A stretch of DNA of 64,000 nucleotides from positions 143,052 to 207,051 of the forward strand of contig JBAZHC010000003.1 in NCBI GenBank assembly GCA_041652575.1, read 5' to 3'. This DNA comes from Phycisphaerae bacterium. Lineage in GTDB: Bacteria; Planctomycetota; Phycisphaerae; Sedimentisphaerales; UBA12454. The translations under genes and the position numbers were made by a program. The notes under the pieces are model-generated. The model did no database searches and was not told the origin of the DNA. It was given only the letters and a program-made list of their open reading frames with translations. Positions 45,643 through 62,253 of this stretch are shown piece after piece; within the stretch, counting starts at the first letter, position 1; each line of letters starts with the position of its first letter.

Positions 45643-46538
45643 AAAAACAAAGATTACTTCCAATGACCGAAAAACGTAACCGCAAAAGCGAAAATATCGA
45701 TATATTATCGACTCTGCAAATTGTCAAACTTATAAATTCCGAAGATATGCTTATCGCACCGGCAGTTGGCAAGGAGAGTAAAAAAATTGCCGTGGCAGTC
45801 GATATGATAGTTGAACGTTTCAAAAGAAACGGCAGGCTGTTTTATGTCGGGGCAGGCACAAGCGGCAGACTGGGCGTACTGGACGCCTCGGAATGTCCGC
45901 CTACGTTCGGAGTAAGCCCGCTGCTGGTTCAGGGAATTATCGCAGGCGGCAAACGGGCACTGGTAAAAGCCGTCGAAGGCGCTGAAGACAAAATCAACGA
46001 TGGAATAAAAGCCATAAAAAAACATAGAATTTCCTCAAAAGATGTAGTTGTCGGCATCGCGGCCTGCGGATTGACGCCTTTTGTTCGAGCGGCGTTAAAA
46101 GAAGCAAAGAAAAAAGGAGCAGGAACTATTTTTGTTACCTGTGCGCCGGAGGCTGTGAAAGATATTCCTGCCCAAATAGTTATAAATCCTGTTGTCGGGC
46201 CGGAAGTCGTTACAGGCTCAACACGAATGAAAGCCGGTACCGCGACAAAACTTGTGCTTAATCTTCTCACAACGGGCGCTATGATAAAAATGGGCAAGGT
46301 GTACGGCAATTTGATGGTTGACCTGAAAGCGACAAATAATAAATTAAAAGATAGGTCGGTAAGAATTGTCTCGGAAATGACGGAACTTTCAAAATCAGGT
46401 TCTGCCAAGCTTATCAAAAAGGCAAACGGAAAAGTAAAAACAGCTATTGTAATGCACTTTTGCAATGTCGATTCAAAACAGGCTGAGGATATTCTCGACA
46501 AATGTGGGCAATCTTTGCGAAAGGCCATAGGTAAATGA
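45639..46538 (+). CDS. murQ: N-acetylmuramic acid 6-phosphate etherase
   Basis: SIS domain: RLFYVGAGTSGRLGVLDASECPPTFG and VTGSTRMKAGTATKLVLN. The start overlaps the anmK stop (ATGA). Confidence 0.92.
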   Translation: MKKQRLLPMTEKRNRKSENIDILSTLQIVKLINSEDMLIAPAVGKESKKIAVAVDMIVERFKRNGRLFYVGAGTSGRLGVLDASECPPTFGVSPLLVQGIIAGGKRALVKAVEGAEDKINDGIKAIKKHRISSKDVVVGIAACGLTPFVRAALKEAKKKGAGTIFVTCAPEAVKDIPAQIVINPVVGPEVVTGSTRMKAGTATKLVLNLLTTGAMIKMGKVYGNLMVDLKATNNKLKDRSVRIVSEMTELSKSGSAKLIKKANGKVKTAIVMHFCNVDSKQAEDILDKCGQSLRKAIGK

Positions 46539-48007
46539 GCGAAGTCGCACCGATACAACATCTGGCAGGCCATTTGGGCGGAATAGATTTAATAATAGTC
46601 GGTTTGGCGGTTCTTTTCCTCTTTGTCATTTCCTATATTTTTGGACGCAAAGAAAAAAATACAAATGATTTCTTTCTCGGTGAAAGAAAAGTTCCTTCGA
46701 TTGTAGCGTGCCTGTCTTTTGTCGCAACTGAAGTCAGCGCACTGACGATTGTCGGCGTGCCTGCAACTGCTTACAGCGAAAACTGGGAGTATCTTCAGTT
46801 CTTTGTCGGTTCGGCAGCAGCGAGAATTCTCGTAGCGTTTTTGTTTATTCCTGTTTTTTACAAATACAACTGCACAAGCATTTATGAGTTTTTAAGGCAC
46901 CGTTTCGGGCCGGAAACGCAATATGCCGGTTCGATTTTCTTTTTCATTACACGATTGATAGCGTCAGGAGTCAGATTGTACGCCGCCTGTCTGGGAATTG
47001 GCATTATCATGGGCTGGAATCTGGCGCAGGCATTATTAGTCTTTACAGTTGTGAGTATAATTTTTATCGCGTTCGGCGGAGTAAAAGCTGTTGTCTGGGC
47101 AGGAGCCTATCAAACGATTATCTTTTTCTCGGCAGGTATAGCATTATTGATATACCTTTATTTGCATATTGAAGGAGATCTATCAACCATTTGGCAAACC
47201 GCAAACCAGGCAGGCCGATTAAGCATATTCAACTTAGACTTAAATTTCAATGACCCCACAACTTTCTGGGCAGGCACCGCAAACGCCTTTTTTATCGGTT
47301 TGGCGGTTTTCGGCACAGACCAGGAACTTATGCAGCGATTGCTTACCGTTCAAACCAGAAGGAAAAGTCAAAATGCGATTTTTATGACGATAGCGGCTGC
47401 GTTTCCGATTCTCTGCATATATCTTGCAATCGGCACTTTGCTTTATGTGTTTTTTCAGCAGAATCCTAATATCCCCTCCCCGGACAAGGCCAAAGAGGTT
47501 CTTTCCTACTTTACGGCGAATTTCCTGCCTGCAGGATTAAAGGGACTGATACTTTCAGCAATCATATTAGCCAGTATCGATTCGCCGCTTAGTTCACTAT
47601 CGTCATCGTTTGTGATGGACATTTACCGGCCGCTCATCAAAAAAGCGGCATCAGAAAAACATTATTTAATAGTCTCAAGAACAGGCGTAATAGTCTTCGG
47701 TTTGATTTTAGCCGGTCTGGCTTTTGCCTGCCAGCCGGTCGAAAATATTCTGTGGTTCGCGTTCCAGATAATTTCGCTTACCGGCGGAGCTACACTGGGC
47801 GTTTTCCTATTCGGCGTTCTTACAAAAAGAAAAGGAAATATGGGCAACGTCGCTTCAATGATTATCAGCACGCTGTCTATGACAGCGCTTTTACTTTTAT
47901 CTTACAGCGGGCATATAAACCTGGCATGGAGCTGGCTGATAGTCCTGGGAACAGCGGAAACATTCTTTTTGAGTTTGATTTTCAGCAGTTCACAAAGTAC
48001 TGTCTAA
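46535..48007 (+). CDS. Sodium:solute symporter family transporter
   Basis: Multi-TM SSF pattern. The start overlaps the murQ stop (ATGA), so it belongs to the same operon. Confidence 0.8.
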   Translation: MSEVAPIQHLAGHLGGIDLIIVGLAVLFLFVISYIFGRKEKNTNDFFLGERKVPSIVACLSFVATEVSALTIVGVPATAYSENWEYLQFFVGSAAARILVAFLFIPVFYKYNCTSIYEFLRHRFGPETQYAGSIFFFITRLIASGVRLYAACLGIGIIMGWNLAQALLVFTVVSIIFIAFGGVKAVVWAGAYQTIIFFSAGIALLIYLYLHIEGDLSTIWQTANQAGRLSIFNLDLNFNDPTTFWAGTANAFFIGLAVFGTDQELMQRLLTVQTRRKSQNAIFMTIAAAFPILCIYLAIGTLLYVFFQQNPNIPSPDKAKEVLSYFTANFLPAGLKGLILSAIILASIDSPLSSLSSSFVMDIYRPLIKKAASEKHYLIVSRTGVIVFGLILAGLAFACQPVENILWFAFQIISLTGGATLGVFLFGVLTKRKGNMGNVASMIISTLSMTALLLLSYSGHINLAWSWLIVLGTAETFFLSLIFSSSQSTV

Positions 48008-48009
48008 TC

Positions 48010-49257
48010 TTATCTTCTCCGCCGGCGCTGAGGACCGTGTTTTTTGCCGCCATAAGAAAAAACTTTCTTTGTGTGCCCTGATGGGCGAGGTCTGTCTTCG
48101 GACTGCCTTTGCGGTGCGGCATGGACAGAGTAATCAAAGTCCGGACATTTTTCCATCTTGAATCTGCGGCCGATAAATTTTTCAATCTGACGAATATATT
48201 TTTCCTCATCGCGAGAAACAAATGTAATCGCGTCGCCTTTGGCTGTGGCCCGGCCGGTACGGCCGATACGATGAATATAATCCTCGGCAAATACGGGCAC
48301 ATCGAAATTTATGACGTGTGAAATTCCCTCGACGTCTATGCCGCGTGCGGCGATATCGGTCGCAACCATAACCTGGAATTTGCCGCCCTTAAAGCCATCC
48401 ATTGCCCTGCGTCGCTGGCCCTGAGTCCGGTCGGAGTGTATCGCAATTGATTTAACGCCTGCCCGCTCGAGGCAATGACTAATTCTATCTGCGCCGTGCT
48501 TGGTACGGGAAAAAACAAGTATGCTGTACATTCCGCCTTTTTGAATCATGTGCAGCAGAATATCCAGTTTCTGCTCCCTGGGGACAGGATATATATGCTG
48601 TGTAATAGTATCGATTGGGTTATGCTGCTGACCTATCTGAATTATTTTCGGATGATTCTGTATTCCGGCGGCCAGGGTCTTTACCTGTGGCGGTATTGTG
48701 GCGGAAAAAAGCAGCGTTTGACGTTTTGTCGGAACGGCGGCAATAATTCTCCGCACATCGTTGATAAATCCCATATCGAACATACGGTCGGCTTCGTCAA
48801 GAACAAGCACTTCAACGTGCCTCAGGTCGATGCTCCGCCGCTGCATATGGTCGAGAAGACGACCCGGCGTTGCAACAACAATGTCAACGCCTCTGCGAAG
48901 CGCGGTAAGCTGATTCACAATACTCACGCCGCCGTAAACGGTAAGAGTGCGCATATTCAGGAATCTGCCGTAGCCGATGATACACTGTTCGATTTGCAGC
49001 GCCAGCTCACGAGTCGGAGTAAGAATCAACGCTTTTATATTTTTGTTTTTGGACGCATGCTCGTGACTGAGCCTATTTAAAATAGGCAGTACAAAAGCGG
49101 CGGTTTTGCCTGTGCCGGTCTGGGCGCAGCCGATAATATCACTGCCTTCAATGGCGGCTGGAATAACCTGAGACTGAATTTCTGTCGGAGCCGTATAACC
49201 GGTAGCAAGAATACCGCGTACGAGCGGATCGGAAAGACCAAGTAATTTAAATGGCAT
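48010..49257 (-). CDS. rhlE: DEAD-box ATP-dependent RNA helicase, RhlE-like, with a basic C-terminal tail
   Basis: Q-motif TEIQ, AQTGTGKTAAF, DEAD (VLDEADRM), SAT and HRIGRTGRA. The start is moved to the ATG at 49257 (MPFKLLGLSDPL). Confidence 0.9.
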   Translation of the reverse strand: MPFKLLGLSDPLVRGILATGYTAPTEIQSQVIPAAIEGSDIIGCAQTGTGKTAAFVLPILNRLSHEHASKNKNIKALILTPTRELALQIEQCIIGYGRFLNMRTLTVYGGVSIVNQLTALRRGVDIVVATPGRLLDHMQRRSIDLRHVEVLVLDEADRMFDMGFINDVRRIIAAVPTKRQTLLFSATIPPQVKTLAAGIQNHPKIIQIGQQHNPIDTITQHIYPVPREQKLDILLHMIQKGGMYSILVFSRTKHGADRISHCLERAGVKSIAIHSDRTQGQRRRAMDGFKGGKFQVMVATDIAARGIDVEGISHVINFDVPVFAEDYIHRIGRTGRATAKGDAITFVSRDEEKYIRQIEKFIGRRFKMEKCPDFDYSVHAAPQRQSEDRPRPSGHTKKVFSYGGKKHGPQRRRRR

Positions 49258-49582
49258 ATTAGAAAATCCTAAAACAAGAACAGTGGGACTTACACCCGGA
49301 AAATTAAACGCAGCCAATACAAGGTCAAACGCCTTATTGGCCGCTTATATTATCAATTTATAACTTCAATGTCCAGATTATAACATCTCTTAACATTGAA
49401 AGAAGCAAAAACTTTCCCATCTCCGGTCTGGATTATAATTAACCGCTGATATGGCATTTTTAGTGCCAATTCGGGCATTTTTACTTTTGGCAGGTACAGC
49501 AATTCTAACGGATTGTTTGGTGGAAACGCTAATAACTCAGACCGCAGGCGTTTTCAACCGTTTATTTTACAAGAGGTGGAGT

Positions 49583-50923
49583 TTAATCTAAATCCTTCTT
49601 TACCGCTTCCGGGAGAAGTTTAAAAATGCCTGTTATTAAATCCTGAGCCTTTTTGGTACTGCCGGACAGTAAATAATCACGGGCTTTATCGATTTGCCCG
49701 GCCATATCGGGATTCAGCGATTTAACCATTTTCCTCAAAGAATATATCTGAGACGGAATACGGATGGAATCTTTGTCAAACTCAAAAGACTTCAATTTAC
49801 CAGCGTATTCCGCAATTGTTTCCAGCTCGCGATAACCATATCCTTCCACTCCGAACTCAGGATGCAGCACGACGTTCCTGACAGGCTCAACTGTTCCGCC
49901 TTCATTTAAATCGTTCCATGTAGCAATCTGAATAAATTTGACGTTATGTTTTAAACAATCTTCCCACGTTGCACGAAATTTATCTCCATTCCTGCGAGGT
50001 GTAATTCCGATTGCCCCGTCACTGCCCCATCCGCCGCAGCCGCGATTATCAAAACCCGGCAGAACGACACCTGATAAAAATGAAAATCTGTCGTAACTGC
50101 CAATCGCCTTTTCGGCATCTTCCCAGAAAACAGGTATCGAGTCGCAATCGCCGTGATAAGTACAGCCCCACGGCATAACCGATTCATATCCCTGAAATTC
50201 ATTAACGGTTCTGTGTTTGTGCCAGTCGTGAATAAAAACAGGTCCTGGTTTTATGGAATTAAGCACTTCATTCCATTCAGCAGAATTCAGCCATGGCTGA
50301 TTTATATCTTTCCCCGGACTGCCCCATGCAAAATTAGTCAATACCGGACGATTGTCTATTTTTAAATATGCAGGCGAACTGAACCATTCTTTTTTCAGAT
50401 ACTTAATTATTTCCTTGCCGCGAGTTATGGCATCTTTGCGACTTTTGACTCCTGTGGAAATGGGCGGAAACATTGACCGGTCTTCCCAGCATATCATCAC
50501 CTTGAAATTTAATTTCTCGGCTGCCTGCCGCATCGCAGCAAAACCAATATTGTCATAAGGATGTTCGGCAGACGGGTCGGGACCATACCAATCGGCCACA
50601 AACGCATCTATTCCCGCCAGTTTCGCAAGCAGGATATGATATTCGCATAAATCAGGGTCAGCGGAATCGTAAGGACCAATAACAGGATAATAAACTGAAG
50701 ATATGTCACGGCAATTGTTCTGCAAAATTTTATCAGGCCGGTGCCAGTATTCTTGTGGAATAGCAGGACGGTTTACCTGCCAGAATCCCCATGAACCGGA
50801 TATGTCAGGCGTTTGATACCACGACATATAATGAGCAACTATAATTGGTTTGCTTATATCGTTAGAGGCTGTCAGATTGGTGTTTAAGGAAATAAGAATC
50901 AAAAAAGCTAAAAAAAAACTCAT
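49583..50923 (-). CDS. Secreted GH99-like glycoside hydrolase (endo-alpha-mannosidase fold; family tentative), paralog 1
   Basis: Signal peptide. Motifs are VAHYMSWY, SVYYPVIGPYDSADPDLCEYHILLAKLAGIDAFVADWYG and IQIATWNDLNEGGTVEP. The ATG at 50923 overlaps the upstream stop (TAATG). Confidence 0.55.
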   Translation of the reverse strand: MSFFLAFLILISLNTNLTASNDISKPIIVAHYMSWYQTPDISGSWGFWQVNRPAIPQEYWHRPDKILQNNCRDISSVYYPVIGPYDSADPDLCEYHILLAKLAGIDAFVADWYGPDPSAEHPYDNIGFAAMRQAAEKLNFKVMICWEDRSMFPPISTGVKSRKDAITRGKEIIKYLKKEWFSSPAYLKIDNRPVLTNFAWGSPGKDINQPWLNSAEWNEVLNSIKPGPVFIHDWHKHRTVNEFQGYESVMPWGCTYHGDCDSIPVFWEDAEKAIGSYDRFSFLSGVVLPGFDNRGCGGWGSDGAIGITPRRNGDKFRATWEDCLKHNVKFIQIATWNDLNEGGTVEPVRNVVLHPEFGVEGYGYRELETIAEYAGKLKSFEFDKDSIRIPSQIYSLRKMVKSLNPDMAGQIDKARDYLLSGSTKKAQDLITGIFKLLPEAVKKDLD

Positions 50924-52836
50924 TATTCCTCGAGCCAATTTTCAGAAATTACAGCTAAATCACGAATTCCATAGCCATTTCGCCAGCTCTGACCGATTAA
51001 GACCAAATCCTTAAAATTAACTTTACCATCGTGCGAATAATCACCCGGCTGATAAGCTGTCAGTGAACCTTCTCCTGTCCAATACGTTACCGAATCGATA
51101 TCAAAGAAATTAGCCCAGAACGAGACAATTTCCCCGGCCTGTGCATACTGACCCGCCTTGATATAATCACAGGCAGTTTGCATATCAGACAATACATAAG
51201 GACTGTTTGTAATATCCCTGATTTTATAAATCCATATCGGCACATTAAAATCAGGAATCGGTGAATTGGGAAGATTTTGAAATTCTGCTGTTTTCAAAAA
51301 TGTTTTCTCAAGATATAAGTTGCCGAATTCAACTGAAGATTCGATTATCGTACCTTCAAACCAATCGTTCCACGTCGCAATCTGCACAACAGGCAGATTA
51401 TTATCAATCGCCCAATTCCATGCGGCATCATACAACTGACCATTATATCTCGGCATTAAACGGGGCCCATCGCCCCAGCCCCAGACCGCGTAATCATCAA
51501 ATCCGGGCCATACTCCGGACATATAAAAATCAGCAAGATTGTTTTTAAGAAGATATTGCCCGAACACCCTGTCGTCATACATCGTGCCGTTATTATCCAC
51601 CATATCACAGTAGCCAACGTAAGGATACAACTCAGGAGGCGCAGAATATAATTGCGGCCAATCGAACTGGCCGTTAAGAACTCCGACATGGTCCGGGTCT
51701 TTAAACCACTGACGCATTATAACAGGTCTGTTTTCCGCAGAAAATGTATTCAGCCACGTTGTAATTTCCGCAGGCAGCAGGCAACTTATTCCTTTGCCTG
51801 CGATATCATATTCATAACTGAAAAGCAAAAACAACGGCCTTGTGCCGGTAACATAATATTGTCTGCCGGAATTATTAAACAGTGCCAGCCAGTTGTTCAT
51901 ATCACCGTAAGCTCTCGCAACCGCGACCGCTCTTGTCGTGGCACCGCTATCCCATATCCAGTGAGCTTTGTCCTCATAGCAAATCACAGCCTTTAACCCG
52001 TACTGCGACATAATATCAAGATAATTGGTTATCATATTAACCGTGTTCATATCCATACTATAATAGCCCAGGTCAAATATGACTCCGCCGATGCCGGCCA
52101 TCTTTAAACTCTGGCAATGATATTCCACAAGACAAGGGTCCTTCATATCATAGTAACCAACCGAAGGATAATAAACCGACGCGATATCCGGCTTGCCATT
52201 GGCATCAAGTACGAGCGGATTATGGCTGTAAGAATTCCATCCCGACCAGCTTCCGCTGTATTGCGGCGTTCTGAATCCGGTCATCTCGTGACCAAAAACA
52301 ATTTTTGGAGCCGCTGTCGTCAAAGCGGTTGGTTTCCAGTAGCCCGGCCCTTCTTTGACATGTATCTTATCGAAAATAAATCCGCTGCCGATGCTGCCGT
52401 AAAGCCTGATTCGAATCCAGTAATATTCTGCGTTCGTTATATTATTCTGCGCAGCCAGAGTCGCAACGCTTTCGAGGACCTGTGTATTTGTATCGTTTCT
52501 TTGAGATGCCCACTGAACTTCGCCAATAAGTATCTTGGAGCTGTTGAAATATAAAATCCACAGCGAATACTGCCCTGATGCTATCGAAGCGGAAGGCTTG
52601 ATTTCCACCCTGTCATTATAGTTGCGAACCCTGACAAAACAGCAATCGTACCAGTTGACTATTGTATCGCCAGAAGCGGTTTTATTCATACTTACAGTAC
52701 CATTGCCGTTTGCCGTAACCGAGGAATTCAGAGCAGGATTTAAAAGCGTAGTATTGTCGAGGTTGTCTATTATCTCAGCCTGACAGTAACCGCTGAATAA
52801 AATTAAAAACAAAAATGTTACTAATCTTTTGCCCAT
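50923..52836 (-). CDS. Secreted GH99-like glycoside hydrolase, paralog 2, with an N-terminal beta-sandwich (CBM-like) region and a C-terminal dockerin-like tail
   Basis: The ATG at 52836 is 1 nt after the upstream stop. Signal peptide is MGKRLVTFLFLILFSGYCQA. Motifs are SVYYPSVGYYDMKDPCLVEYH and VQIATWNDWFEGTIIES. The tail is PGDYSHDGKVNFKDLVLIGQSWRNGYGIRDLAVISENWLEE. Confidence 0.55.
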   Translation of the reverse strand: MGKRLVTFLFLILFSGYCQAEIIDNLDNTTLLNPALNSSVTANGNGTVSMNKTASGDTIVNWYDCCFVRVRNYNDRVEIKPSASIASGQYSLWILYFNSSKILIGEVQWASQRNDTNTQVLESVATLAAQNNITNAEYYWIRIRLYGSIGSGFIFDKIHVKEGPGYWKPTALTTAAPKIVFGHEMTGFRTPQYSGSWSGWNSYSHNPLVLDANGKPDIASVYYPSVGYYDMKDPCLVEYHCQSLKMAGIGGVIFDLGYYSMDMNTVNMITNYLDIMSQYGLKAVICYEDKAHWIWDSGATTRAVAVARAYGDMNNWLALFNNSGRQYYVTGTRPLFLLFSYEYDIAGKGISCLLPAEITTWLNTFSAENRPVIMRQWFKDPDHVGVLNGQFDWPQLYSAPPELYPYVGYCDMVDNNGTMYDDRVFGQYLLKNNLADFYMSGVWPGFDDYAVWGWGDGPRLMPRYNGQLYDAAWNWAIDNNLPVVQIATWNDWFEGTIIESSVEFGNLYLEKTFLKTAEFQNLPNSPIPDFNVPIWIYKIRDITNSPYVLSDMQTACDYIKAGQYAQAGEIVSFWANFFDIDSVTYWTGEGSLTAYQPGDYSHDGKVNFKDLVLIGQSWRNGYGIRDLAVISENWLEE

Positions 52837-52837
52837 A

Positions 52838-54079
52838 TTAAAGCTTTTCGGCAAGGGTCTTCGCCTTGCCAAAATCCTTTTCAAAAAGGGCCTTGCTTAA
52901 TTCATCAAGAATTGCCTTGTCAGATTTACTTTCTTTCCTTGCCTTGTAAAGCTTCAGCGGTATTTTCAAAACATCGTTTGGAACATTATCTTCAACACCC
53001 TTGTATTTAGCCACGTACTTTTTATTCATCTCAAGATACTTGTAACCATATTTATCGCACGGCTCAATCTGCGTACCCTCGTTCCAGTCGTTCCATGTTA
53101 TTATTTGAACGACATCGACATTATTATCAATCGACATCTGCCAGGTCAGGTCAAATCTTTTGCCGTCGTATCTCGGCGCTTTTCTTGCACCGGTTCCCCA
53201 GCCCCAAACAGGAGTATCGTCAAAGCCGGGCGTTACCCCGCCGAATACAATTTCATCTTTAATCTGCTGATTTTTTACTTTAAAGAAATCAGTATAAACA
53301 TTTTTGCAAAAATCAAGGTCGCTGCTGTTTGTCTTCGGGTCGAAACTGCCGACCCAGAAATATTTTCCACCGGCGGCTTGACCGAATTGCTGATAAGCGC
53401 CGAGGTCAAAAATCAGCTTAACAGGCGTATCTTTGAAAGCTTCCGATATCCTGAGCCATTCAGTAGGATTGAACCACTGATCCGGAACTTTCCTGAAAAC
53501 AAGAACAGGCTTTACGCCGTTAACCGTTCCATAAAAAGATTTATTCAGAAACGTTTCAGTCATCCACTGCAATTCATCCTGAGCGGCTTTAATTTCCGCC
53601 TCCCTGTCGGCAAATGTGCCCTTAGGCCAATAACCGCACCATTCCTCGAAACACATCATCAATTTCATATTATATTTTTCGAGGTACGGCAGAATTGACA
53701 TCAAACCTTCGTGGCGGTATTTATTTATCCTTCTTCCGTCCCAGTCGACGATTATGCCGTCTATCCCGCTTAACTTCATCAGCAGGAACTGATATTCGAG
53801 AATATCGGGGTCTGAAGTATCATACGGCCCTGTGAGCGGATAACTGGTTACCGCCAAATCGCGTTTGCCATCAAGAAAAATAACATTGGGGTCGTGCGGG
53901 CTTTGCTTCCAGTCCGAATTCCACATTTCCCATCTGCCGGAAAATTCCACAGTCTTGAACCATGTAACAAAATGAGCGTAAACTTCCTTTTTGCTGCCGC
54001 CGGTTTCCTGCGAAAAAACACAACTAAAGCAGAAAATCAAACAGGCAAAAACTACCAGAAGTTTTCTTTTCAATTCCAT
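52838..54079 (-). CDS. Secreted GH99-like glycoside hydrolase, paralog 3
   Basis: Signal peptide. Motifs are VYAHFVTWF, TSYPLTGPYDTSDPDILEYQFLLMKLSGIDGIIVDWDG and VQIITWNDWNEGTQIEP. Confidence 0.55.
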   Translation of the reverse strand: MELKRKLLVVFACLIFCFSCVFSQETGGSKKEVYAHFVTWFKTVEFSGRWEMWNSDWKQSPHDPNVIFLDGKRDLAVTSYPLTGPYDTSDPDILEYQFLLMKLSGIDGIIVDWDGRRINKYRHEGLMSILPYLEKYNMKLMMCFEEWCGYWPKGTFADREAEIKAAQDELQWMTETFLNKSFYGTVNGVKPVLVFRKVPDQWFNPTEWLRISEAFKDTPVKLIFDLGAYQQFGQAAGGKYFWVGSFDPKTNSSDLDFCKNVYTDFFKVKNQQIKDEIVFGGVTPGFDDTPVWGWGTGARKAPRYDGKRFDLTWQMSIDNNVDVVQIITWNDWNEGTQIEPCDKYGYKYLEMNKKYVAKYKGVEDNVPNDVLKIPLKLYKARKESKSDKAILDELSKALFEKDFGKAKTLAEKL

Positions 54080-54082
54080 TTA

Positions 54083-55222
54083 TTAATCGCTTTCATTACC
54101 GGGCCCGGTAACTGGACAACTCAATAGATAATTAATTAAATCATCGACTTTACAGGTTGCAAGTCCTACATATTTATCGGCTGCCCCGTAATATACAAAT
54201 AACTTATTATCAATAATAACTTTGCCGCACGGAAATACCACACCGCCGCCAGAGTAGCAGCCCTGCGTCTCATAATCCGTTTCAGGCTGTAAAATCCAGT
54301 CCCTTGTCCTGTATTTTACCTTTGTCGGGTCTTCCAAATCAAGCAGTATGGCCCCAAGACGGTAATATTTGTCTTTTCCGACCGCGTGATATATCGTAAG
54401 CCAGCCGGCATCAGTTCGTATCGGCGGCGTATTACCTCCTATTTTCAATTCCCACGGAAATGTCGCCTTCGCCAGTAATTTGCTCTTTTTAAAAGCCAGC
54501 ATATCATCGGCAGATGAAATCCATATCGCCGGGTAGTCAGTGCCGTATTCTTTTCCGCACCACTCCATCGGCCTGTGAAGCATATAAAATTTTCCGCCGA
54601 TTTTTTCCGGGAACAGGACAACATCTCTGTCATCCATCATCGGGTCAGTGAGCCGGCCTGCTCTTATAAAATTTTTAAAATCTTTTGTTATCAGCAAATG
54701 CGATGTCGTGTGATTTTCTCTGACACAAAGCGGAAACTCATCCGAACAATCCGGGCTTTTATAACATTTGCCGTCATTGAGCCAGTATTCGCCCGGCGGA
54801 AAAACTCTTGTCGCATAGGTTATATAATAGAACTGTCCCATCTTCACTATTCGAGGGTCTTCCATACATCCGCCGTCGAGGCCATCGGCACTGGGTGAAA
54901 TCACCGGTTTATCGAAACGATGAAAATTATATCCATCCCTGCTGACAGCCAATCCAAAACGCACAACATGTCTGGAGTCGTTTCCTGCTGCACGATACAG
55001 CAAGTTGACAACGCCTGATTGCCTGTCATACCATGCGCCGGGATTGGTCGTAACAAAGCTTTCCCACTGATTGGCAGGATTCGGCGAAATAACAGGATTG
55101 CCTTCGAAACGCTGCAGTTTGACCGAAGCTCTGCGGCTTTTAATGTTCACATAAGCCAAATCCGACTTTACCTTTCCACTGCTCGTCCCTGCATTGTTGG
55201 TTGTTTCTTTAAAAATACTCAT
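54083..55222 (-). CDS. GH130-family glycosidase / beta-mannoside phosphorylase-like protein
   Basis: FEGNPVISP...TTNPGAWY...LYRAAG...RFGLAVSRDGYNF...CMEDPRIV...YYITYA is the five-bladed GH130 pattern. There is no signal peptide. Confidence 0.75.
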   Translation of the reverse strand: MSIFKETTNNAGTSSGKVKSDLAYVNIKSRRASVKLQRFEGNPVISPNPANQWESFVTTNPGAWYDRQSGVVNLLYRAAGNDSRHVVRFGLAVSRDGYNFHRFDKPVISPSADGLDGGCMEDPRIVKMGQFYYITYATRVFPPGEYWLNDGKCYKSPDCSDEFPLCVRENHTTSHLLITKDFKNFIRAGRLTDPMMDDRDVVLFPEKIGGKFYMLHRPMEWCGKEYGTDYPAIWISSADDMLAFKKSKLLAKATFPWELKIGGNTPPIRTDAGWLTIYHAVGKDKYYRLGAILLDLEDPTKVKYRTRDWILQPETDYETQGCYSGGGVVFPCGKVIIDNKLFVYYGAADKYVGLATCKVDDLINYLLSCPVTGPGNESD

Positions 55223-55240
55223 TCTAAACCTTTTAAATTG

Positions 55241-57037
55241 TTATTCTTTCTCGAGTTTCCTGAACCAGTTAAAATGCAGGAACACCGACGTTACGAACGT
55301 TACAGCGATCGTAATAAACATAGATTTATAATCCTTAATAATCAAATATATCGATATGAGCGGCATTGAAAGCTGCCAGATAATTCCGACGGTAATATTC
55401 ACCATATCACGTTTGAAATCCTTGTTTTTTTCAAAGGACGGATTATCTTTCAGAACCATCTGATGCACAGGTTTCCAAAAGCCCCACGGCCGAACATCCG
55501 AATAAAACTTCTTCAGCGTTTCATCATCTTCCGGTTTTGTAAGCAGACTCACCGCAATGGAAGCGATACCGCTTGCAAGCAGAATAAACGGAAAACTGTT
55601 AATTGCAGTAAGTTTCGGAAATGCCATTGGGAACACAAGCGATGCGACGACTCCGGCGGCCATTCCCGCAAAATAACCAAAACCGTTGAGCCGCCACCAG
55701 TACCATTTCAGGACATTAGGCGCAAGATATCCGCCATATAATCCCGCGACCAGCCACATAGTAACCGAGCCGATGGATTTGGCCATATATCCGAAGAGAA
55801 TTCCCACGGTGACAACAAGAATCGTACATATATAACTTACATAAACATATTTTTTCTCATTGGCATCAGGATTTATATAACGTTTATAAATATCTATAAC
55901 AATATATGCTGTACCGGCGTTAACCGTGGAATCGAAAGTGCTCATAAACGCCGCAAGCAGCCCGGCAAGCATCAGTCCCACAATGCCGACCGGCAAAAAG
56001 TTATTAACGATGTAAGGCAGTATCTGTTCAAAATCAACATTGCTGCCCATCGCGTTCAACTGAGGAGTATAATATACGAGAGCAAGTACCGTAACACCTG
56101 TTATGAGCATATAGCGGGGTATAAACTGAGTAATCGAAACAAACCAGCTCATAAGAGCGGCTTCACGCGGACTCTTGGTTGACAGAACCCGCTGCATATC
56201 ATAATTAGGACACGGCCCTGCCATACTGGCTAAAATTCCCTTAAATAAAATCATCATAAAGAAAATCCCAAAAAGGCCGAAGCCGTCCTCAGCCATTTTG
56301 CCGTTCAAACTATCCACAAGGCCGGACCAGTCAATATGCAGGTTCCAGCCAAACCCGAGATTGTGCCAATCTGCCGGTACAGCAGCAGTAATCTGAGCCG
56401 CTGTAGTCCTGTTCATCGCTATAAATGCGACTATGAACGAAGTAACAACCATTATGACATATTTCAGCGCATCGGTCAGAACCACACTGTACATACCGCC
56501 TGTTATTACATACACCGTCGTAATAGCCATAATAATCACGGCATAAGTATTAGGAGATAAATGCCACGGCATGAATATGGCGGCAAACTTACCCACGCCT
56601 TTAAAATCATAACCGATGAAACCGACAACAGAAACCAGCGCGAAAAACACAACACTGAGATGTGATAATCTCGCGCCAGAATCGTTTCCGAATCTTGTAT
56701 TTATCCACGCAGCTCCCGTTAAAACGTTCGACCTTCTTAACCAGATGGAAAGATATACCATTCCGAATATCTGATTAAACGTCGGCCAAATCCACGGTAT
56801 CCAGGCGCTTTTTAAACCATAAGCAAACAACAGATACACCAGCCACATCGTGCCGGTGATATCGAACATACTCGATGAATTGGATATGCCCAGCAGATAC
56901 CATGGTATTCGATTGCCCGCGAGAAAATACGAACCGACATTCTTTGATGCAAGTTTGGAAAAAAGGAAACCGACTACTACAACTACTACTATATAAATGC
57001 CTATAATTACAATATCAACGGTATGTAAATTCATCAA
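55241..57037 (-). CDS. Sodium:solute symporter family transporter
   Basis: 598 aa, multi-TM SSF pattern. It lies directly upstream of the GH130 gene. Confidence 0.8.
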   Translation of the reverse strand: MMNLHTVDIVIIGIYIVVVVVVGFLFSKLASKNVGSYFLAGNRIPWYLLGISNSSSMFDITGTMWLVYLLFAYGLKSAWIPWIWPTFNQIFGMVYLSIWLRRSNVLTGAAWINTRFGNDSGARLSHLSVVFFALVSVVGFIGYDFKGVGKFAAIFMPWHLSPNTYAVIIMAITTVYVITGGMYSVVLTDALKYVIMVVTSFIVAFIAMNRTTAAQITAAVPADWHNLGFGWNLHIDWSGLVDSLNGKMAEDGFGLFGIFFMMILFKGILASMAGPCPNYDMQRVLSTKSPREAALMSWFVSITQFIPRYMLITGVTVLALVYYTPQLNAMGSNVDFEQILPYIVNNFLPVGIVGLMLAGLLAAFMSTFDSTVNAGTAYIVIDIYKRYINPDANEKKYVYVSYICTILVVTVGILFGYMAKSIGSVTMWLVAGLYGGYLAPNVLKWYWWRLNGFGYFAGMAAGVVASLVFPMAFPKLTAINSFPFILLASGIASIAVSLLTKPEDDETLKKFYSDVRPWGFWKPVHQMVLKDNPSFEKNKDFKRDMVNITVGIIWQLSMPLISIYLIIKDYKSMFITIAVTFVTSVFLHFNWFRKLEKE

Positions 57038-57077
57038 CGATTCATCCTAAAGAATTAAATAGTCGGTCTTAAAAATT

Positions 57078-57935
57078 TCACTTGTCTTTTTTGGCCCAGA
57101 AGCAATTATACACCCAAAGTATATCGTTTTTGCCATCTTCTGTTGCAGCTCTAAACACTCTAAAAGGATATGGTGTTTTAGTTTTTTCATAAGATGCGAA
57201 AAGTTTACTAAGTTCTATCGACCAGCTTCTTTGCATAGCATGGCCGTCGGCAAATGCAAAACAACTTCTGCTCGAACGTGAATGTCTGACTGTAATAGGG
57301 TCGGCGCTTATAGTCATGTCGGTTTTATTGATATCAGGCATCCAGGAATCCATATTATAATTCCGCGGGTCAGTTTCTTCTACCATTACATATTTTTCAC
57401 TCGGTCTTCTTATCTGCACCAAATTTGTCAGGCTGTCCCATGCTTTGGCATACGTACTGCTCTTTGGGATAAATGTTTGTTCACCGTTCATAGTATCCGG
57501 TATGGAATAACTCCTAAAGTGGCCGCTTTTATCGTCGCTACAATGGAATACATTTAGGTCTGATGCGTAGGAAAACAGTTTGCCTCTTTTTATGCCTTCC
57601 TTTTCCTGCTCAATTGTAGGCTTAACATTATCCTTTATTGTTTTGCCGGTGACAGGATCGGTCGGAGCCCATACCCAGGCATATCTGGAGTAGTTTACTC
57701 GTAATACATCTCCCTCGTCATCACTTCTATAGTTCAATGCACATACCAGTCTGCCGTCATTTGCCATAGCATAAGCATACCAGGCCGTGCCGAGTTGTTT
57801 AAGATTATTCTCGCACATAATGGTTCTGCCCATCTCCCTGGCCTTGTTCAATGATGGCAGCAGCATCGCAAGCAGCAAGGCGATGATGGAAACAACCACC
57901 AAAAGCTCAACAAGAGTGAAACCATTTTTCTTCAT
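57078..57935 (-). CDS. Pseudopilin-like protein: prepilin-type N-terminal cleavage/methylation domain with a DUF1559/HX9DG-like C-terminus
   Basis: GGAG RBS and the ATG at 57935. The N-terminus is [21 protein letters not shown], followed by [18 protein letters not shown] and a C-terminal [10 protein letters not shown]. Confidence 0.8.
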
Positions 57936-58025
57936 TTTTAACACTCCAAGCTTAACAAATTCCATTTCTTAATATCCGGTGTGGAACAGACCGCCTGGCC
58001 GGTTCCACACCAGTTTTATCCAGTC

Positions 58026-59930
58026 TCAATACTTTTCATTAAGCCAGTTGCCGGATATATCTTTCAAATCCAGCATATCATACTCATTCATCCACGACTC
58101 GCCTATAAAAGCTACATCCTGGAAATTCACAATACAATCTTCATAATAATCTCCCGGCATAACATCTGTGCCGCAATTCATCGCCACCCTGACATCATCA
58201 ATTGTCGCGGATTTGCCGTTGCCGTTTATCCAGAAGATAACCCTGAACTGCTTATAACCGCTCCAGCCGGTAATATTAGCGATATTAACCTTGAATGTAT
58301 TCGGCCCTGTAATATTCTGAATAACATCTACATAACTCCAGGCGCCTCCCTGTTCCTGAACGCCAACATCGAGCCATCCGTCGGTATCTACGCCGGTAAC
58401 CGTGACAGTAAGTTCAGGATAGACCGCCAAATTAACCAAAAGCGTTTCAGACTCAACTTTGCCATAGCTTGCGTATGGATTATCTTCGGTAAGAATCGCA
58501 GTAGTACCGGGTATGTCCGTCCAATAAGCATCAAGCTCCGTCCATCCGGTTCTAATAGGGTCAAAGTGGTCTTCCCAGAAAATCGGGTCAGGTCTTGAGG
58601 CAAGCTGACTGTTACGAACTTCAATCGTATTGAATGTCGTACTGTCGCCGCCGCCTCCGTTATCCAGCCAAATATTAATCTGGAAAGTTTTAACGCCGCT
58701 CCAGCCCATTAAACCTTTAATGTCAATACGGTTTTCCGAAGGCACTCCCATATAACTTACCGCATCAGCATAAGAGCCGGCGCCGCCTACTTCCTGAATT
58801 TGAACTGTATACAAACAGCCGGATTCGACATCTGTTGTTTTAATATGTAATTCGTCATAAAAATTAACATCAAGCGTTATAACTTCCGAATTGGTAACGC
58901 CCCACCATTCTCCGGGATTCGGATTAATAGTTACAACCGCATTAGGTCCGGCGGTATCAGTCCAGTAACAGGTCGGTTCAATCCAGGTAGTTTTGATAGG
59001 GTTAAAATCTTCAACCCAGCCCGCCTGTCCCCGCAGTGATTTTCTTATCTGCAGTAAATCGAACGTAACCGATTTGCTTTCGCCATCAATCCATATATTG
59101 ATAATAAAGGATTTTACCCCGCTCCAGCCCATAAGTTTGGCTATATCGACGACCTGTGTGCCGGCCTGACCAACATAGCTGACTGCATTGGCATAAGCAT
59201 TTGAGCCGCCTACTTCCTGAATTTGAACTGTATAAAGAGCGCCGCTTTCAACTTCGGTGGACGCAATAACAAGTTCATTATATTCATTGACATCGACAGT
59301 GATTACCTCTGATCCTGCATCGCCATAACTGTTTACAGGATCACTTTCAGTAAGCCTTGCCGTTGAGCCTGTTAAATCTGTCCATGTAGCACTCGGCTGA
59401 GACCATGTTGATTTGATAGGGTCGAAATGTTCTGTCCATCCTTCTGAAGCTGCCGCTTCTCTTAACTGAAGAAGACCGAATGTTACAGATTTGGTTTCTC
59501 CGTCAATCCATATATTTACCACAAATGATTTTGTTCCGCTCCATCCCATAAGCGCAGCAATATTAACTATCTGTGTGCCGGGAGTACCGACATAACTGAC
59601 CGCATTGGCATAAGCACCACCTTCGACAGCTTCCTGAATCTGAATTGTATACAACGCGCCGGCTTCCACATCGGTTGAAGTGATAACGAGTTCACTGTAA
59701 ACGCTTACATCAGCAGTAATAGTTTCTGATGTAGCGACACCGTAACTGTTTACCGGGTCGTTTTCAGTTAGTGTTGCAGTCGGCCCCGCCAAATCGGTCC
59801 AGTATGCACTGACCTCATTCCATGTTGTCTTGACAGGATCGAAATTCTCTTCCCACACAACTGCCGCTTTTGCGCCACAGGCGAAAATCATAACCATTGC
59901 TGTTATAATTAAAATCAAAAATCTTTTCAT
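58026..59930 (-). CDS. Secreted protein made of four tandem roughly 143 aa modules (CBM-like, unassigned) plus a dockerin-like C-terminal tail
   Basis: Signal peptide. Four units share W-E-x-F-D-P-[IV]-K-T-x-W...YWTD...LYT[IV]QIQE...AVSYVG...LMGWSG.K.F..NIW.DG. The tail is PGDYYEDCIVNFQDVAFIGESWMNEYDMLDLKDISGNWLNEKY. Confidence 0.75.
   Translation of the reverse strand: MKRFLILIITAMVMIFACGAKAAVVWEENFDPVKTTWNEVSAYWTDLAGPTATLTENDPVNSYGVATSETITADVSVYSELVITSTDVEAGALYTIQIQEAVEGGAYANAVSYVGTPGTQIVNIAALMGWSGTKSFVVNIWIDGETKSVTFGLLQLREAAASEGWTEHFDPIKSTWSQPSATWTDLTGSTARLTESDPVNSYGDAGSEVITVDVNEYNELVIASTEVESGALYTVQIQEVGGSNAYANAVSYVGQAGTQVVDIAKLMGWSGVKSFIINIWIDGESKSVTFDLLQIRKSLRGQAGWVEDFNPIKTTWIEPTCYWTDTAGPNAVVTINPNPGEWWGVTNSEVITLDVNFYDELHIKTTDVESGCLYTVQIQEVGGAGSYADAVSYMGVPSENRIDIKGLMGWSGVKTFQINIWLDNGGGGDSTTFNTIEVRNSQLASRPDPIFWEDHFDPIRTGWTELDAYWTDIPGTTAILTEDNPYASYGKVESETLLVNLAVYPELTVTVTGVDTDGWLDVGVQEQGGAWSYVDVIQNITGPNTFKVNIANITGWSGYKQFRVIFWINGNGKSATIDDVRVAMNCGTDVMPGDYYEDCIVNFQDVAFIGESWMNEYDMLDLKDISGNWLNEKY
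58170..59861 (-). repeat. Four-fold tandem coding repeat, period about 420-430 bp
   Basis: Repeats are visible at the DNA level. For example, CCGCCTACTTCCTGAATTTGAACTGTATA recurs near 58790 and 59210, with a diverged copy near 59630. Confidence 0.8.
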
Positions 59931-60002
59931 ATTTTCACTCCTGCTCTCTGCTCATAAATAATATTTCTTGATATATTTATGGCAAACTAAGCTTTCAGAT
60001 AA

Positions 60003-60791
60003 TTATACCATTTTCTTCCTTAAAAGTAACGCACCAAGCCCGACAAAAACAAGTGTTATTGGCTCCGGAATAACGGCAGTAATTGTGGTTCTTCCGCTAT
60101 CATAGCTATAAATGAAGCTTCCGATACCGTCATAAGCGGTTACATCGCCATAGGTTGTAACATCAGTAATTTCACCATTAAGAATCAATGAGCCGCCTGT
60201 AATATCAATTGAGCCGTTATCAGACATAACAAGTCCCCCGCCGCCGGTTACGTCAATAGTGCCGTCATCCAGTTGAATATGGCCTACGCCGTTACCGTTA
60301 GTACCGCTATAACCGCCTGCTACTGCCAACAGCCATGATATATTAACTGTTCCGCCATTCATCAAAAGTGTACCATCTCCCTGTGAACCGTCTGTGTCTC
60401 CGCCGCACATCAAAAGAGTTGTATTAACTATACCGGAGTCAACCTGTAATATGCCCTTCTGGTCGGTTCCCCACTGGCCTACAAACAGATGGTCTGAGAC
60501 CTGAAGCGTACCGCCATTGACAGTCACTTTTGAGCCAGTTGGCGTTGTATCGCATATATGCAGCCAGTTGGCATATCCCGTCTCGCCTGTATTTAGAATC
60601 GGCCCTGTTGTATCATATGTGCCGACAACAACATCATCGCCGCTTGTAGGATATGCTGTCCAATTTCCTGTATCAACCCATAGACGATTGGTAGCATCGT
60701 TAGTCCACCACAACCACTGCCCAAACGACACGTTCGCCACTATGACAACAATTATCAGGGATGTTAAAAAACCATTTTTTTTCAATAACAT
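60003..60791 (-). CDS. PEP-CTERM sorting-domain protein with a glycine-rich beta-helix-like passenger
   Basis: Signal peptide and repetitive GGT[VI]N/DGTIDVTGGG segments. The C-terminus is VIPEPITLVFVGLGALLLRKKMV (PEP motif, TM helix, basic tail). Confidence 0.8.
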   Translation of the reverse strand: MLLKKNGFLTSLIIVVIVANVSFGQWLWWTNDATNRLWVDTGNWTAYPTSGDDVVVGTYDTTGPILNTGETGYANWLHICDTTPTGSKVTVNGGTLQVSDHLFVGQWGTDQKGILQVDSGIVNTTLLMCGGDTDGSQGDGTLLMNGGTVNISWLLAVAGGYSGTNGNGVGHIQLDDGTIDVTGGGGLVMSDNGSIDITGGSLILNGEITDVTTYGDVTAYDGIGSFIYSYDSGRTTITAVIPEPITLVFVGLGALLLRKKMV

Positions 60792-61095
60792 AATCCTTCT
60801 CCTTTACAAATTAAGTTACATATTTAATACATCCATAACATTTTGCTGTTTTTTAAGTGCACTTCTTACACAGCATCTATGATACCATAATACAGGGCAT
60901 TCTATATCCATTCAAAGCCAATATACGGATTTTTTTAGCCAAATTACGACAGGCCTAAAAAATAATTTATTGTTTGTATGTCATTCATATACAATTAGTT
61001 ACAAAAACACACATTGCAATATTCATTATAAAATTTACCATTTTTTCAATGCAATTCTGGACATTTATATGCCAAGTCCGGATAATATATACTGT

Positions 61096-62253
61096 ATGAA
61101 AAAACTGCCGCGAATAATTCTAATGGTCGAACCTTTAGGCGAGTATCTCCAGGGACTACTAAGGGGTATTGCGCAATATTCAAACTCAAACGGGCCATGG
61201 GTTTTTTACAGGGAGCCCGGCAAACACGAAGGTACACTGCCTCAGCTTAATCCCGAAGAAGCTGACGGCGTCATCGCCAAAATTGCCAACACTGCCGGTG
61301 CGAGAAAAAAACTTCCCCGGACAGTTCCGGTAATTCTTATCGGATATAGAGAAATTATTCCTGAGATGCCTCAGATTTTCGGCGACACTGAAGCTATCGG
61401 CAAAGTCGCCGCCGAGTATTTCCTCAATAAGGGATTCAGAAATTTCGCTTTTTGCGGCTTCGATGAGTTTCACTGGTCGCGGGAAAGAGGCAAAAGTTTC
61501 AAATTGTTTTTAGAAAACAAAGGATACAAAGTTCATTTATACAGAAATCTGAAAGGAGCTATGCGCAAGTCCTGGCAGCTCGAACAGCAGGACCTCGCTA
61601 AATGGCTCAGGACTTTGCCGAAACCTGTGGCTATTCTGGCATGTAATGACGACCGCGGACAGCATCTTATAAGCGCATGCAAACTCGGCAAAATGCGAAT
61701 TCCTGACGAGATTTCAGTCCTCGGAGTTGATAACGACAAATTTGTATGCTCGTTAACTTACCCGCCGCTTTCGAGTATAGCTCTTGGTACAGAACGGGCA
61801 GGTTATGAAGCCGCGCAGCTTTTGGCAAAAATGATGCAAATGAAAAAATTCATTAATTCGAGCATTATGGTCAGGCCTACCCATGTTATAACAAGACAAT
61901 CTACCGATATCATCGCGGCAGAAGATACGCTGCTTTCCGAAGCTATAAATTACATCCAGAAACATTCAAATATGGATATCTCCGTTGATGATGTAGCCGG
62001 CGAGGTAATGGTATCAAGAAGAAGTCTCGAAAGAAAGTTTCGCAGGCAGTTGAACAAATCCATTTATGATGAAATCCGGCGTATAAGAGTAAACAGAATT
62101 ATCTCAATGCTGCTCGAGACCGACCTGACAATAGCACAAATCGGCCTTGCCATGGGTTTTAAAGATATCACACACACAGGCAGGTATTTTAAGGAAGAAA
62201 CCGGCCTTTCGCCGCTGGCTTACAGAAGAAAATTTATTAACCAATCACTTTAA
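61096..62253 (+). CDS. XylR-type regulator: periplasmic-binding-protein-like sugar-sensor domain fused to an AraC-family HTH
   Basis: The start is moved to the ATG at 61096 (MKKLPRIILMVEP). The LacI/PBP-like core contains ILACNDDRG and ISVLGVDND. The C-terminal AraC HTH is IAQIGLAMGFKDITHTGRYFKEETGLSPLAYRR. Confidence 0.8.
   Translation: MKKLPRIILMVEPLGEYLQGLLRGIAQYSNSNGPWVFYREPGKHEGTLPQLNPEEADGVIAKIANTAGARKKLPRTVPVILIGYREIIPEMPQIFGDTEAIGKVAAEYFLNKGFRNFAFCGFDEFHWSRERGKSFKLFLENKGYKVHLYRNLKGAMRKSWQLEQQDLAKWLRTLPKPVAILACNDDRGQHLISACKLGKMRIPDEISVLGVDNDKFVCSLTYPPLSSIALGTERAGYEAAQLLAKMMQMKKFINSSIMVRPTHVITRQSTDIIAAEDTLLSEAINYIQKHSNMDISVDDVAGEVMVSRRSLERKFRRQLNKSIYDEIRRIRVNRIISMLLETDLTIAQIGLAMGFKDITHTGRYFKEETGLSPLAYRRKFINQSL

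Follow-up and report, generated by a model that had tools for sequence, protein, structure and literature searches.

Polysaccharide-utilisation loci (PULs) of Bacteroidota bring together, in one place and one orientation, proteins for surface binding, endo-enzymes, an importer, enzymes that finish degradation inside the cell and a regulator that senses sugar. In the mannobiose pathway of Bacteroides fragilis, which handles products of beta-1,4-mannan, a cation-coupled symporter imports a beta-mannoside disaccharide, an epimerase acts, and a cytoplasmic GH130 mannosylglucose phosphorylase of the Y/R type (defined below) cleaves. GH130 beta-1,3-mannoside phosphorylases have been characterised in vitro only, and their natural substrate sources are tentative (PMC7660257). 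Here we analyse a nine-gene locus at positions 49583–62253 of a 64,000-nucleotide stretch of DNA from a Phycisphaerae bacterium (GenBank assembly GCA_041652575.1, contig JBAZHC010000003.1, positions 143,052 to 207,051), hereafter the window, which is part of contig C3 in a 2.98 Mb genome that is 97% complete. The PUL logic of this locus is already known as a kind, and the same classes of component are co-localised and co-oriented here. In contrast to the Bacteroidota loci, this locus is without SusC/SusD and an SSS symporter is assigned uptake across the inner membrane; where those loci have their surface components, this one has a DUF1559 pilin-like protein, a PEP-CTERM-like protein and dockerin-like tails, and the regulator is of the XylR type, not a hybrid two-component system or extracytoplasmic function (ECF) sigma factor. 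The combination of symporter and cytoplasmic GH130 resembles the B. fragilis pathway, which differs in its Y/R-type GH130, its beta-1,4-mannan products and its lack of a GH99-like enzyme.

We favour, with reasonable rather than strong confidence, reading the locus as a SusC/D-free catabolic polysaccharide-utilisation operon whose target is a mannose-containing glycan that yields a small beta-mannoside. That it is a catabolic mannoside locus with these general roles we consider highly probable, while the specific beta-1,3 disaccharide step is tentative, with the balance slightly against it. The genes and the parts of the modular protein are as follows.

49583–50938, minus strand: G1, GH99-like, 451 aa; probable start, ATG at 50923
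50923–52884, minus strand: G2, GH99-like, 653 aa; probable start 52836
52838–54079, minus strand: G3, GH99-like, 413 aa
54083–55222, minus strand: GH130 glycoside phosphorylase (predicted), 379 aa
55241–57037, minus strand: SSS importer, 598 aa
57078–57965, minus strand: prepilin-type DUF1559 pseudopilin-like protein, 295 aa
58026–59930, minus strand: secreted protein with four modules resembling carbohydrate-binding modules (CBMs), 634 aa
59448–59861, 59031–59444, 58590–59024 and 58158–58583, minus strand: the four modules of the 634 aa protein, each a CBM-like beta-sandwich
58026–58157, minus strand: dockerin-like tail of the four-module protein
60003–60791, minus strand: small secreted Gly/Thr-rich PEP-CTERM-like protein, 262 aa
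60970–62253, plus strand: divergent XylR-type regulator, 427 aa; probable start 61096

An open reading frame (ORF) check recovered the eight minus-strand ORFs and the one divergent plus-strand ORF where the original prediction had placed them, with hydrolase genes that overlap or lie 1–3 nt apart and gaps of 18–72 nt farther upstream. For G2 and the regulator, orthologue lengths indicate probable starts downstream of the listed TTG codons, by 16 and 42 codons respectively. All nine genes occur in identical order in 'Planctomycetes bacterium GWF2_41_51' (L001) at protein identities of 60–88%, and two Phycisphaerae metagenome-assembled genomes (MAGs; L008 and L010) keep eight or seven of the nine; identity across the three loci is 54–88%. 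The nine-gene synteny with GWF2_41_51 is not attributable to chance, and gene order is under selection. Family assignments throughout follow Pfam and NCBIfam models with their cut-offs, and by these no TonB-dependent receptor or SusD family match exists among the nine gene products. Together with the family matches and the synteny, this bears out the PUL-like, SusC/D-free operon that had been proposed. A promoter and terminator scan of the locus gave the same counts as shuffled controls.

The prediction of linkage comes from the GH130 enzyme, which matches PF04041 at 162 bits and has a hydrophilic N-terminus without a signal peptide, as expected of the cytoplasmic protein originally described. 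It keeps the catalytic Asp D122, the phosphate-binding R217 and H279, and the equivalents of R59 and D304; retention of these residues and the absence of a signal peptide are the criteria that separate GH130 phosphorylases from secreted GH130 hydrolases (PMC4599007, PMC7660257). By these features the window enzyme is apparently of the phosphorylase and not the hydrolase type: phosphorolysis and hydrolysis had both been allowed for it, and the former is retained and the latter dropped. Linkage specificity in GH130 follows an experimentally validated rule on two residues of the +1 subsite, in which E/K denotes beta-1,2, E/R beta-1,3 and Y/R beta-1,4 (Li et al. 2020, PMC7660257). The window enzyme carries E121/R199 at this pair (UhgbMP positions 103 and 150). 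Around the second position, N-K-D is found in all four solved beta-1,2 enzymes and N-R-N in TM1225, and the window enzyme reads D-R-D, preceded by E-D-P-R. Its best PDB match is Teth514_1788 (9fj8, E = 1.6e-53), and it scores 210 bits against a cut-off of 450 on NF052550, the beta-1,2-mannoside phosphorylase equivalog. A beta-1,2 specificity, suggested by the best PDB matches, was rejected because the residue-level alignment shows D-x-R-D, not NKD. We predict a beta-1,3-mannoside phosphorylase. Characterised E/R-type enzymes act on the disaccharides Man-beta-1,3-Man and Man-beta-1,3-Glc (PMC7660257). Because the GH130 carries the E/R pair, yeast alpha-mannan, N-glycan cores and beta-1,4-mannan, the classical substrates that had been suggested, are disfavoured as the main substrate.

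The nearest described counterparts by residue signature are the beta-1,3-mannoside phosphorylases U7 (meta-node UC7) and zobellia_231 (meta-node C5), which share the E/R pair, the Asp, Arg and His residues and the lack of a signal peptide (PMC7660257). They differ from the window GH130 in that its nearest solved structures are beta-1,2 enzymes, against which it carries an insertion of ~35 residues. This insertion (~140–175; PPGEYWLNDGKCYKSPDCSDEFPLC...), which contains several cysteines, is shared by the GH130 and two close paralogs and is seen relative to Teth514_1788 and Teth514_1789.

G1, G2 and G3, which are 34–35% identical to one another, pass the Glyco_hydro_99 model PF16317 (cut-off 33 bits) at 50.1, 58.6 (residues 207–518) and 59.2 bits. 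Such scores are low, and there are matches to the GH71 and WbsX models as well: on the GH71 model PF03659 (cut-off 34), G1 reaches 41.1 bits, G3 stays below with 28.3 and G2 has no match, while the WbsX model PF14307 is passed by G3 over a partial region only (residues 262–351, 39.5 bits), G1 and G2 falling below its cut-off. A profile of 25 family members aligned over its full length to BtGH99 4acy with E = 3.7e-26, but to the GH71 structure 9fnf with E = 1.3e-5 only. The AlphaFold2 (AF2) model of G3 (predicted local distance difference test score, pLDDT, of 94) has a (beta/alpha)8 fold, and its top 36 Foldseek matches are all GH99 (E ~1e-17, TM-score 0.57–0.75, identity 17–19%), with GH71 structures second in the fold ranking at a TM-score of ~0.5.

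In GH99 the general base (Bx E333, Bt E329) deprotonates O2 of the -1 mannose, and the general acid is Bx E336 or Bt E332 (PMC6001782); in the 4acy alignment these glutamates are E329 and E332 of N-E-W-H-E-G. Of the two, G1–G3 keep the acid (E334, G3 numbering) and carry Asp at the base position (D331). Both residues are invariant in the 25 aligned family members, with the family motif WND[WL]xEG standing where GH99 has FNEWHEG. Because Asp invariably replaces the general-base Glu and GH99 structures are only 17–19% identical, we treat G1–G3 as a distinct family within the GH99/GH71 superfamily and not as canonical GH99, and for the same reasons endo-alpha-1,2-mannanase activity is not to be assumed. 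The Pfam match, the fold and the signal-like N-termini uphold the idea of three secreted GH99-like paralogs, with the reservation that they are not canonical; the endo-mannanase-type role once given to them does not hold up, and G3 more probably trims oligosaccharides. The family nevertheless shares with GH99, its nearest relative by structure and profile, the (beta/alpha)8 fold, the general-acid Glu within a common N-x-W-x-E-G-T-x-I-E-P motif, and secretion within a mannoside-type locus. GH99 enzymes liberate a 1,3-linked disaccharide (PMC6001782), which fits a phosphorylase acting on a 1,3-linked mannoside. Beyond the substituted base, the family is unlike GH99 in that some G3 orthologues are predicted to be cytoplasmic and in that its steady partner is an E/R-type GH130, versus the GH92, GH76 and GH125 of alpha-mannan loci.

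The paralogs differ in their appendages. G1 has a hydrophobic signal-like N-terminus, a C-terminal helical extension and the motif WNDLNEG, and its only orthologue found is that of L001 (75% identity). G2 has an N-terminal domain of ~170 aa without a family, which does not match the hidden Markov model (HMM) of the four-module protein's module, and a dockerin-like C-terminal tail (GDYSHDGKVNFKDL...W) that scores a sub-threshold 12 bits on Dockerin_1; its orthologues are in L001, L008, L010 and L003. Five GH99-like family members occur in the genome, three at the locus and two on contig C7.

A survey scan with one genome per species returned 80 family loci and revealed a close partnership between G3 and GH130. 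A GH130 gene adjoins the G3 relative in all six loci at 44% identity or more (three Planctomycetota MAGs, one MAG labelled Limnocylindrales and two Clostridia MAGs), versus 2 of the 74 loci at ~30%, and GH130 is nearby on four of five metagenome contigs (L004, L089–L091). Every one of the 12 GH130 genes that adjoin G3-type genes, in Planctomycetota, Clostridia and other MAGs, encodes the E/R pair. The Firmicute-type operon comprises LacI, two ABC permeases, a solute-binding protein, a GH99-like lipoprotein (750–790 aa, with the GH99-like domain C-terminal), GH130, the G3-type protein and a CBM4_9 lipoprotein. Because a relative of the GH99 endo-mannosidases and a predicted beta-1,3 GH130 stay paired across several phyla, the target is probably not one of the classical mannans.

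The location of G3 appears to follow the importer. SSS-linked G3-type proteins have a hydrophobic leader in six of six loci (window, L001, L008, L010, L004 and L011), whereas ABC-linked ones start 6–13 residues ahead of the conserved VYAHLCTWF motif and have no signal peptide in four of four loci. Because it is exported beside SSS importers and leaderless beside ABC importers, G3 probably trims oligosaccharides rather than attacking a polymer outside the cell. The simplest reading would have G3 act after import where ABC transporters take up oligosaccharides, and before import, in the periplasm, where an SSS symporter takes the small product. If G3 released Man-beta-1,3-Man or Man-beta-1,3-Glc, as we infer, this would fit the E/R phosphorylase. 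In the Limnocylindrales-labelled MAG (L011:8504–13864), the G3-like, GH130 and SSF genes come immediately after one for a type I phosphodiesterase/nucleotide pyrophosphatase, which may hint at a natural substrate with phosphodiester links.

The four-module protein supplies a further connection to these enzymes. Its tandem modules, of ~140 aa each, are 34–67% identical, and orthologues carry three or four of them. The module has no Pfam family, and a PDB sequence search with the whole protein gave nothing of note. An AF2 model of a single module (pLDDT 95) is an all-beta sandwich whose top Foldseek matches are CBM86, 61, 27, 28, 6, 29 and 16 and the binding module of a Bacillus mannanase, which supports a CBM-like, predicted carbohydrate-binding role. 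The module family is small, with 277 members found by profile search among 1.84 billion (1.84e9) representative proteins. Of the best 150 proteins, 11 combine the module in one chain with a GH99-like catalytic domain of the G1–G3 family, and among 74 module proteins of 240–900 aa, GH99/GH71 is the sole recurrent glycosidase domain; because of these gene fusions elsewhere, the module can be tied to the substrate of the GH99-like enzymes. The tandem modules and the guess that they bind glycan thus both withstood scrutiny, through the CBM-like fold and the fusions. Eight of the 74 module proteins, P0150 and P0153 among them, are ~300 aa long and combine an HTH_3 domain at the N-terminus with the module at the C-terminus; they are possible membrane-spanning regulators sensing the same glycan.

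The importer matches PF00474 at 117.8 bits over model positions 1–406 and TIGR00813 at 128.5 bits, and reaches no NCBIfam equivalog threshold. SSS–GH130 adjacency occurs three times in this genome, SSS paralogs adjoining other GH130 genes. The regulator combines PF13377 (Peripla_BP_3, 123.8 bits) and PF12833 (HTH_18, 70.6 bits), a sugar sensor resembling periplasmic binding proteins fused to an AraC-type helix-turn-helix; its orthologues (383 aa, 81–87% identity) keep the same divergent position, and five close paralogs lie at other cassettes of the genome. An SSS transporter (118 bits) and a XylR/AraC sugar-sensing regulator are thus present as first described.

Taken together, these data suggest the following flow, in which enzymatic specificities, cellular locations, step order and the pilin-like role are our inferences. 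The four-module protein and G2, both dockerin-tailed, would bind the polymer at the cell surface, where G2 would cut it and G1 would supply further endo-activity. In the periplasm, G3 would trim the resulting oligosaccharides to a small unit, probably a disaccharide. The SSS symporter would import this small beta-mannoside unit, the substrate of GH130, and the cytoplasmic GH130 would use phosphate to convert it, most probably from Man-beta-1,3-Man or Man-beta-1,3-Glc, to alpha-mannose-1-phosphate and a hexose. The XylR-type regulator would sense the product sugar and control induction, with the DUF1559 pseudopilin-like and PEP-CTERM-like proteins as putative substrate-specific surface accessories.

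A different assignment of the same parts would make the target a glucan or heteroglycan, with G1–G3 acting like GH71 alpha-1,3-glucanases and GH130 handling Man-beta-1,3-Glc or another side unit. The GH71 score of G1 (41.1 vs 34 bits) and the second place of GH71 among fold classes speak for it, as do the acceptance of Man-beta-1,3-Glc by characterised E/R enzymes and the fact that the genome's two other GH99-like paralogs adjoin an enzyme of the GH31 alpha-glucosidase family; GH71 enzymes also have an Asp/Glu pair at the equivalent motif. GH99 beats GH71, however, by both profile (3.7e-26 vs 1.3e-5) and TM-score (0.6–0.75 vs ~0.5), and the strict cross-phylum partner of G3-type genes is a mannoside phosphorylase, not a glucosidase, leaving a glucan target improbable.

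GH99 and GH130 enzymes both take part in the breakdown of yeast mannan by Bacteroides, a precedent that counts for a classical alpha-mannan or N-glycan locus. Such a locus would have G1–G3 as true GH99 endo-alpha-1,2-mannanases that release alpha-Man/Glc-1,3-Man, while GH130 would remove beta-1,2 caps or cleave the beta-1,4 Man-GlcNAc core. All three paralogs pass the Pfam GH99 model, GH99 is the nearest solved fold and the GH130 has beta-1,2-mannoside phosphorylases as its best PDB matches; the GH130 enzyme of the Bacteroides system is documented (PMC4599007). Set against this are the Asp that replaces the general-base Glu in every family member, the 17–19% identity to GH99 structures, and a GH130 that has Arg instead of the Lys linked to beta-1,2 specificity and Glu instead of the Tyr linked to beta-1,4. 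In addition, GH92, GH76, GH125, GH38 and GH18/85, usual in alpha-mannan and N-glycan loci, are absent from the locus, and we regard this interpretation as quite improbable.

PEP-CTERM systems are often associated with exopolysaccharide loci, which counts for surface-glycan biosynthesis or remodelling by WbsX-like transferases, with GH130 running in the synthetic direction and PEP-CTERM/exosortase tied to exopolysaccharide. The partial WbsX match of G3 (39.5 bits) and the weak GDP-mannose transferase activity of some GH130 beta-1,2/beta-1,3 phosphorylases (PMC12814180) point the same way, but this explanation is very improbable given that G1–G3 carry signal peptides whereas nucleotide-sugar transferases are cytoplasmic, that a sugar-sensing XylR-type regulator and an importer are present, that the Firmicute versions are LacI and ABC-uptake operons with surface lipoprotein enzymes, that the CBM-like module is fused to the catalytic domain, and that Pfam finds no polymerase, flippase or nucleotide-sugar genes among the locus proteins. 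A WbsX-type glycosyltransferase identity, a caveat attached to the original prediction, was examined and rejected: the match is partial and confined to G3, signal peptides are present, the context is catabolic and there are CBM fusions.

Several points weigh against the catabolic beta-mannoside operon that we favour. Among solved structures its GH130 comes closest to the beta-1,2 enzymes Teth514_1788 and Teth514_1789 (subfamily GH130_6), and the beta-1,3 call depends on a two-residue rule validated on few enzymes. The literature search found no characterised member of the Asp-type GH99-like family, and the Glu-to-Asp change at the GH99 base position makes even an alpha-mannosidase-type mechanism uncertain. 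The known substrates of SSS transporters are mainly monosaccharides and other small solutes, and disaccharide import by the symporter is assumed. Conservation is also imperfect: G1 is absent from L008 and L010, and the G3 orthologue P0041 (L088) is solitary, with no GH130 nearby. Finally, signal peptides and cellular locations were read from N-termini by eye and from hydrophobicity.

The remaining proteins of the operon are candidate surface accessories. The pilin-like protein matches PF07963 (N_methyl) at 32.4, PF07596 (DUF1559) at 26.1 and TIGR02532 at 28 bits and has an ADGH motif near its C-terminus, in agreement with the pseudopilin-like protein with a DGH C-terminus reported before. It scores 28 bits against a cut-off of 88.85 on the GspG model, and all other pilin models are below cut-off too. 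Only its N-terminal helix matches PDB pilins; its C-terminal domain matches nothing in the PDB. Because this domain is 51–58% identical to those of the syntenic orthologues but at most 37% identical to, or unalignable with, those of ~20 same-genome paralogs, it is apparently specific to this cassette. With pseudopilins from type II secretion systems (T2SS), type IV minor pilins and planctomycete DUF1559 proteins, it shares the prepilin cleavage/N-methylation motif and the hydrophobic alpha-1 helix, and with the last of these it also shares membership of a very large paralogous family; in Planctopirus limnophila DUF1559 is the largest paralog family, with 68 paralogs of unknown function (PMC10632474). 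Unlike the pseudopilins and minor pilins, the window gene lies away from secretion or pilus machinery, inside an operon of carbohydrate-active enzymes (CAZymes), and its product has the locus-specific C-terminal domain. By Pfam, the operon has no secretion or pilus ATPase, platform or secretin gene.

For the PEP-CTERM-like protein, whose syntenic orthologues are found in L001, L008 and L010, the C-terminus VIPEPITLVFVGLGALLLRKKMV shows VIPEP, a hydrophobic stretch and RKK; its PF07589 score of 14.9–17.7 bits is below the cut-off of 20.7, so that the PEP-CTERM protein originally named is visible as a motif and falls short as a family match. Dockerin-like tails occur on both G2 and the four-module protein; the latter has no Dockerin_1 match, and similar tails elsewhere in the genome pass the cut-off. 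No cohesin match was found in the genome. It holds one exosortase, one prepilin peptidase (Peptidase_A24) and 13 T2SS-E ATPase family matches, all outside the locus, together with ~64 PEP-CTERM-like C-termini and 27 dockerin-like tails (GDxxxDxxVNxxDxxxxxxW). A PEP-CTERM gene is found no more than 3 kb from nine of the 20 DUF1559-type genes (random placement: mean 2.0, maximum 7 in 1000 trials), and nine also have a dockerin-tailed gene within that distance (random mean 1.3, 9 never reached in 1000 trials). The pseudopilin-like, PEP-CTERM-like and dockerin-tailed proteins are a trio that recurs at CAZyme clusters of this genome, consistent with the accessory part foreseen for the first two. 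A literature search for dockerin, PEP-CTERM and pseudopilin together in Phycisphaerae found nothing relevant.

Related cassettes lie elsewhere in the genome. The cassette at C7:49659–58482 (L006:3659–12482) shares the layout of the locus: its regulator is divergent and of the LacI type, its two GH99-like paralogs bear double dockerin-like tails, and it further contains a GH31 gene, one prepilin-type and one PEP-CTERM protein, and a 1061 aa protein without a family. This points to more than one substrate for the GH99-like family. Adjacent to it, C7:58956–65252 (L006:12956–19252) holds a DUF1559 gene, a polysaccharide-lyase-like protein, an alginate-lyase/GH88 fusion (768 aa) and a HAD hydrolase. 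Some 52 kb past the window end, C3:258695–273466 is a mannoside-type cassette with two GH130 genes (one Y/R, one E/R), an SSS paralog, two PEP-CTERM genes, two dockerin-tailed proteins, a DUF1559 gene and a regulator, and no GH99-like gene. Just upstream of the locus, on the plus strand, an operon at window positions 42851–48007 ends in another SSS-family transporter (46535–48007); it seems that this organism usually imports sugars through SSS symporters. In L001 the orthologous locus is followed, on its own strand, by a GHMP-kinase gene (L001:14633–15865) that the window lacks; a DEAD-box helicase gene (48010–49317) holds that position there, and the kinase was not counted in the system.

A more far-reaching proposal joins these observations, and as a whole we hold it to be doubtful. 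The D/E-type GH99-like proteins would form an uncharacterised GH family whose G3 branch releases a 1,3-linked beta-mannosyl disaccharide, Man-beta-1,3-Man or Man-beta-1,3-Glc, from a microbial or fungal glycan and, with the E/R GH130, makes up a cross-phylum pathway; the 140-aa module would be a new CBM family for the same glycan, and the DUF1559, PEP-CTERM and dockerin-tailed proteins would be a capture and transfer apparatus that replaces SusC/SusD in Planctomycetota. The D/E GH99-like family, its fixed E/R GH130 partnership, the rare CBM-like module and the set of pilin-like, PEP-CTERM and dockerin-tailed proteins were not found in the searchable literature. Searches on the GH99 and GH130 pairing gave surveys and Bacteroides yeast-mannan work and nothing on the pairing, and those on WbsX, DUF5010 and 'GH99-like' gave unrelated papers only.

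If this wider proposal is true, the E/R-type GH130 beta-1,3-mannoside phosphorylases would gain their first physiological context. The co-travel of G3-type genes, E/R GH130 and the module offers a concrete and cheap route to a new enzyme specificity, a new binding-module family and the target glycan. The locus is also a clean example of DUF1559 and PEP-CTERM proteins inside a CAZyme operon, and a cassette defined by its substrate would make the role of DUF1559 testable.

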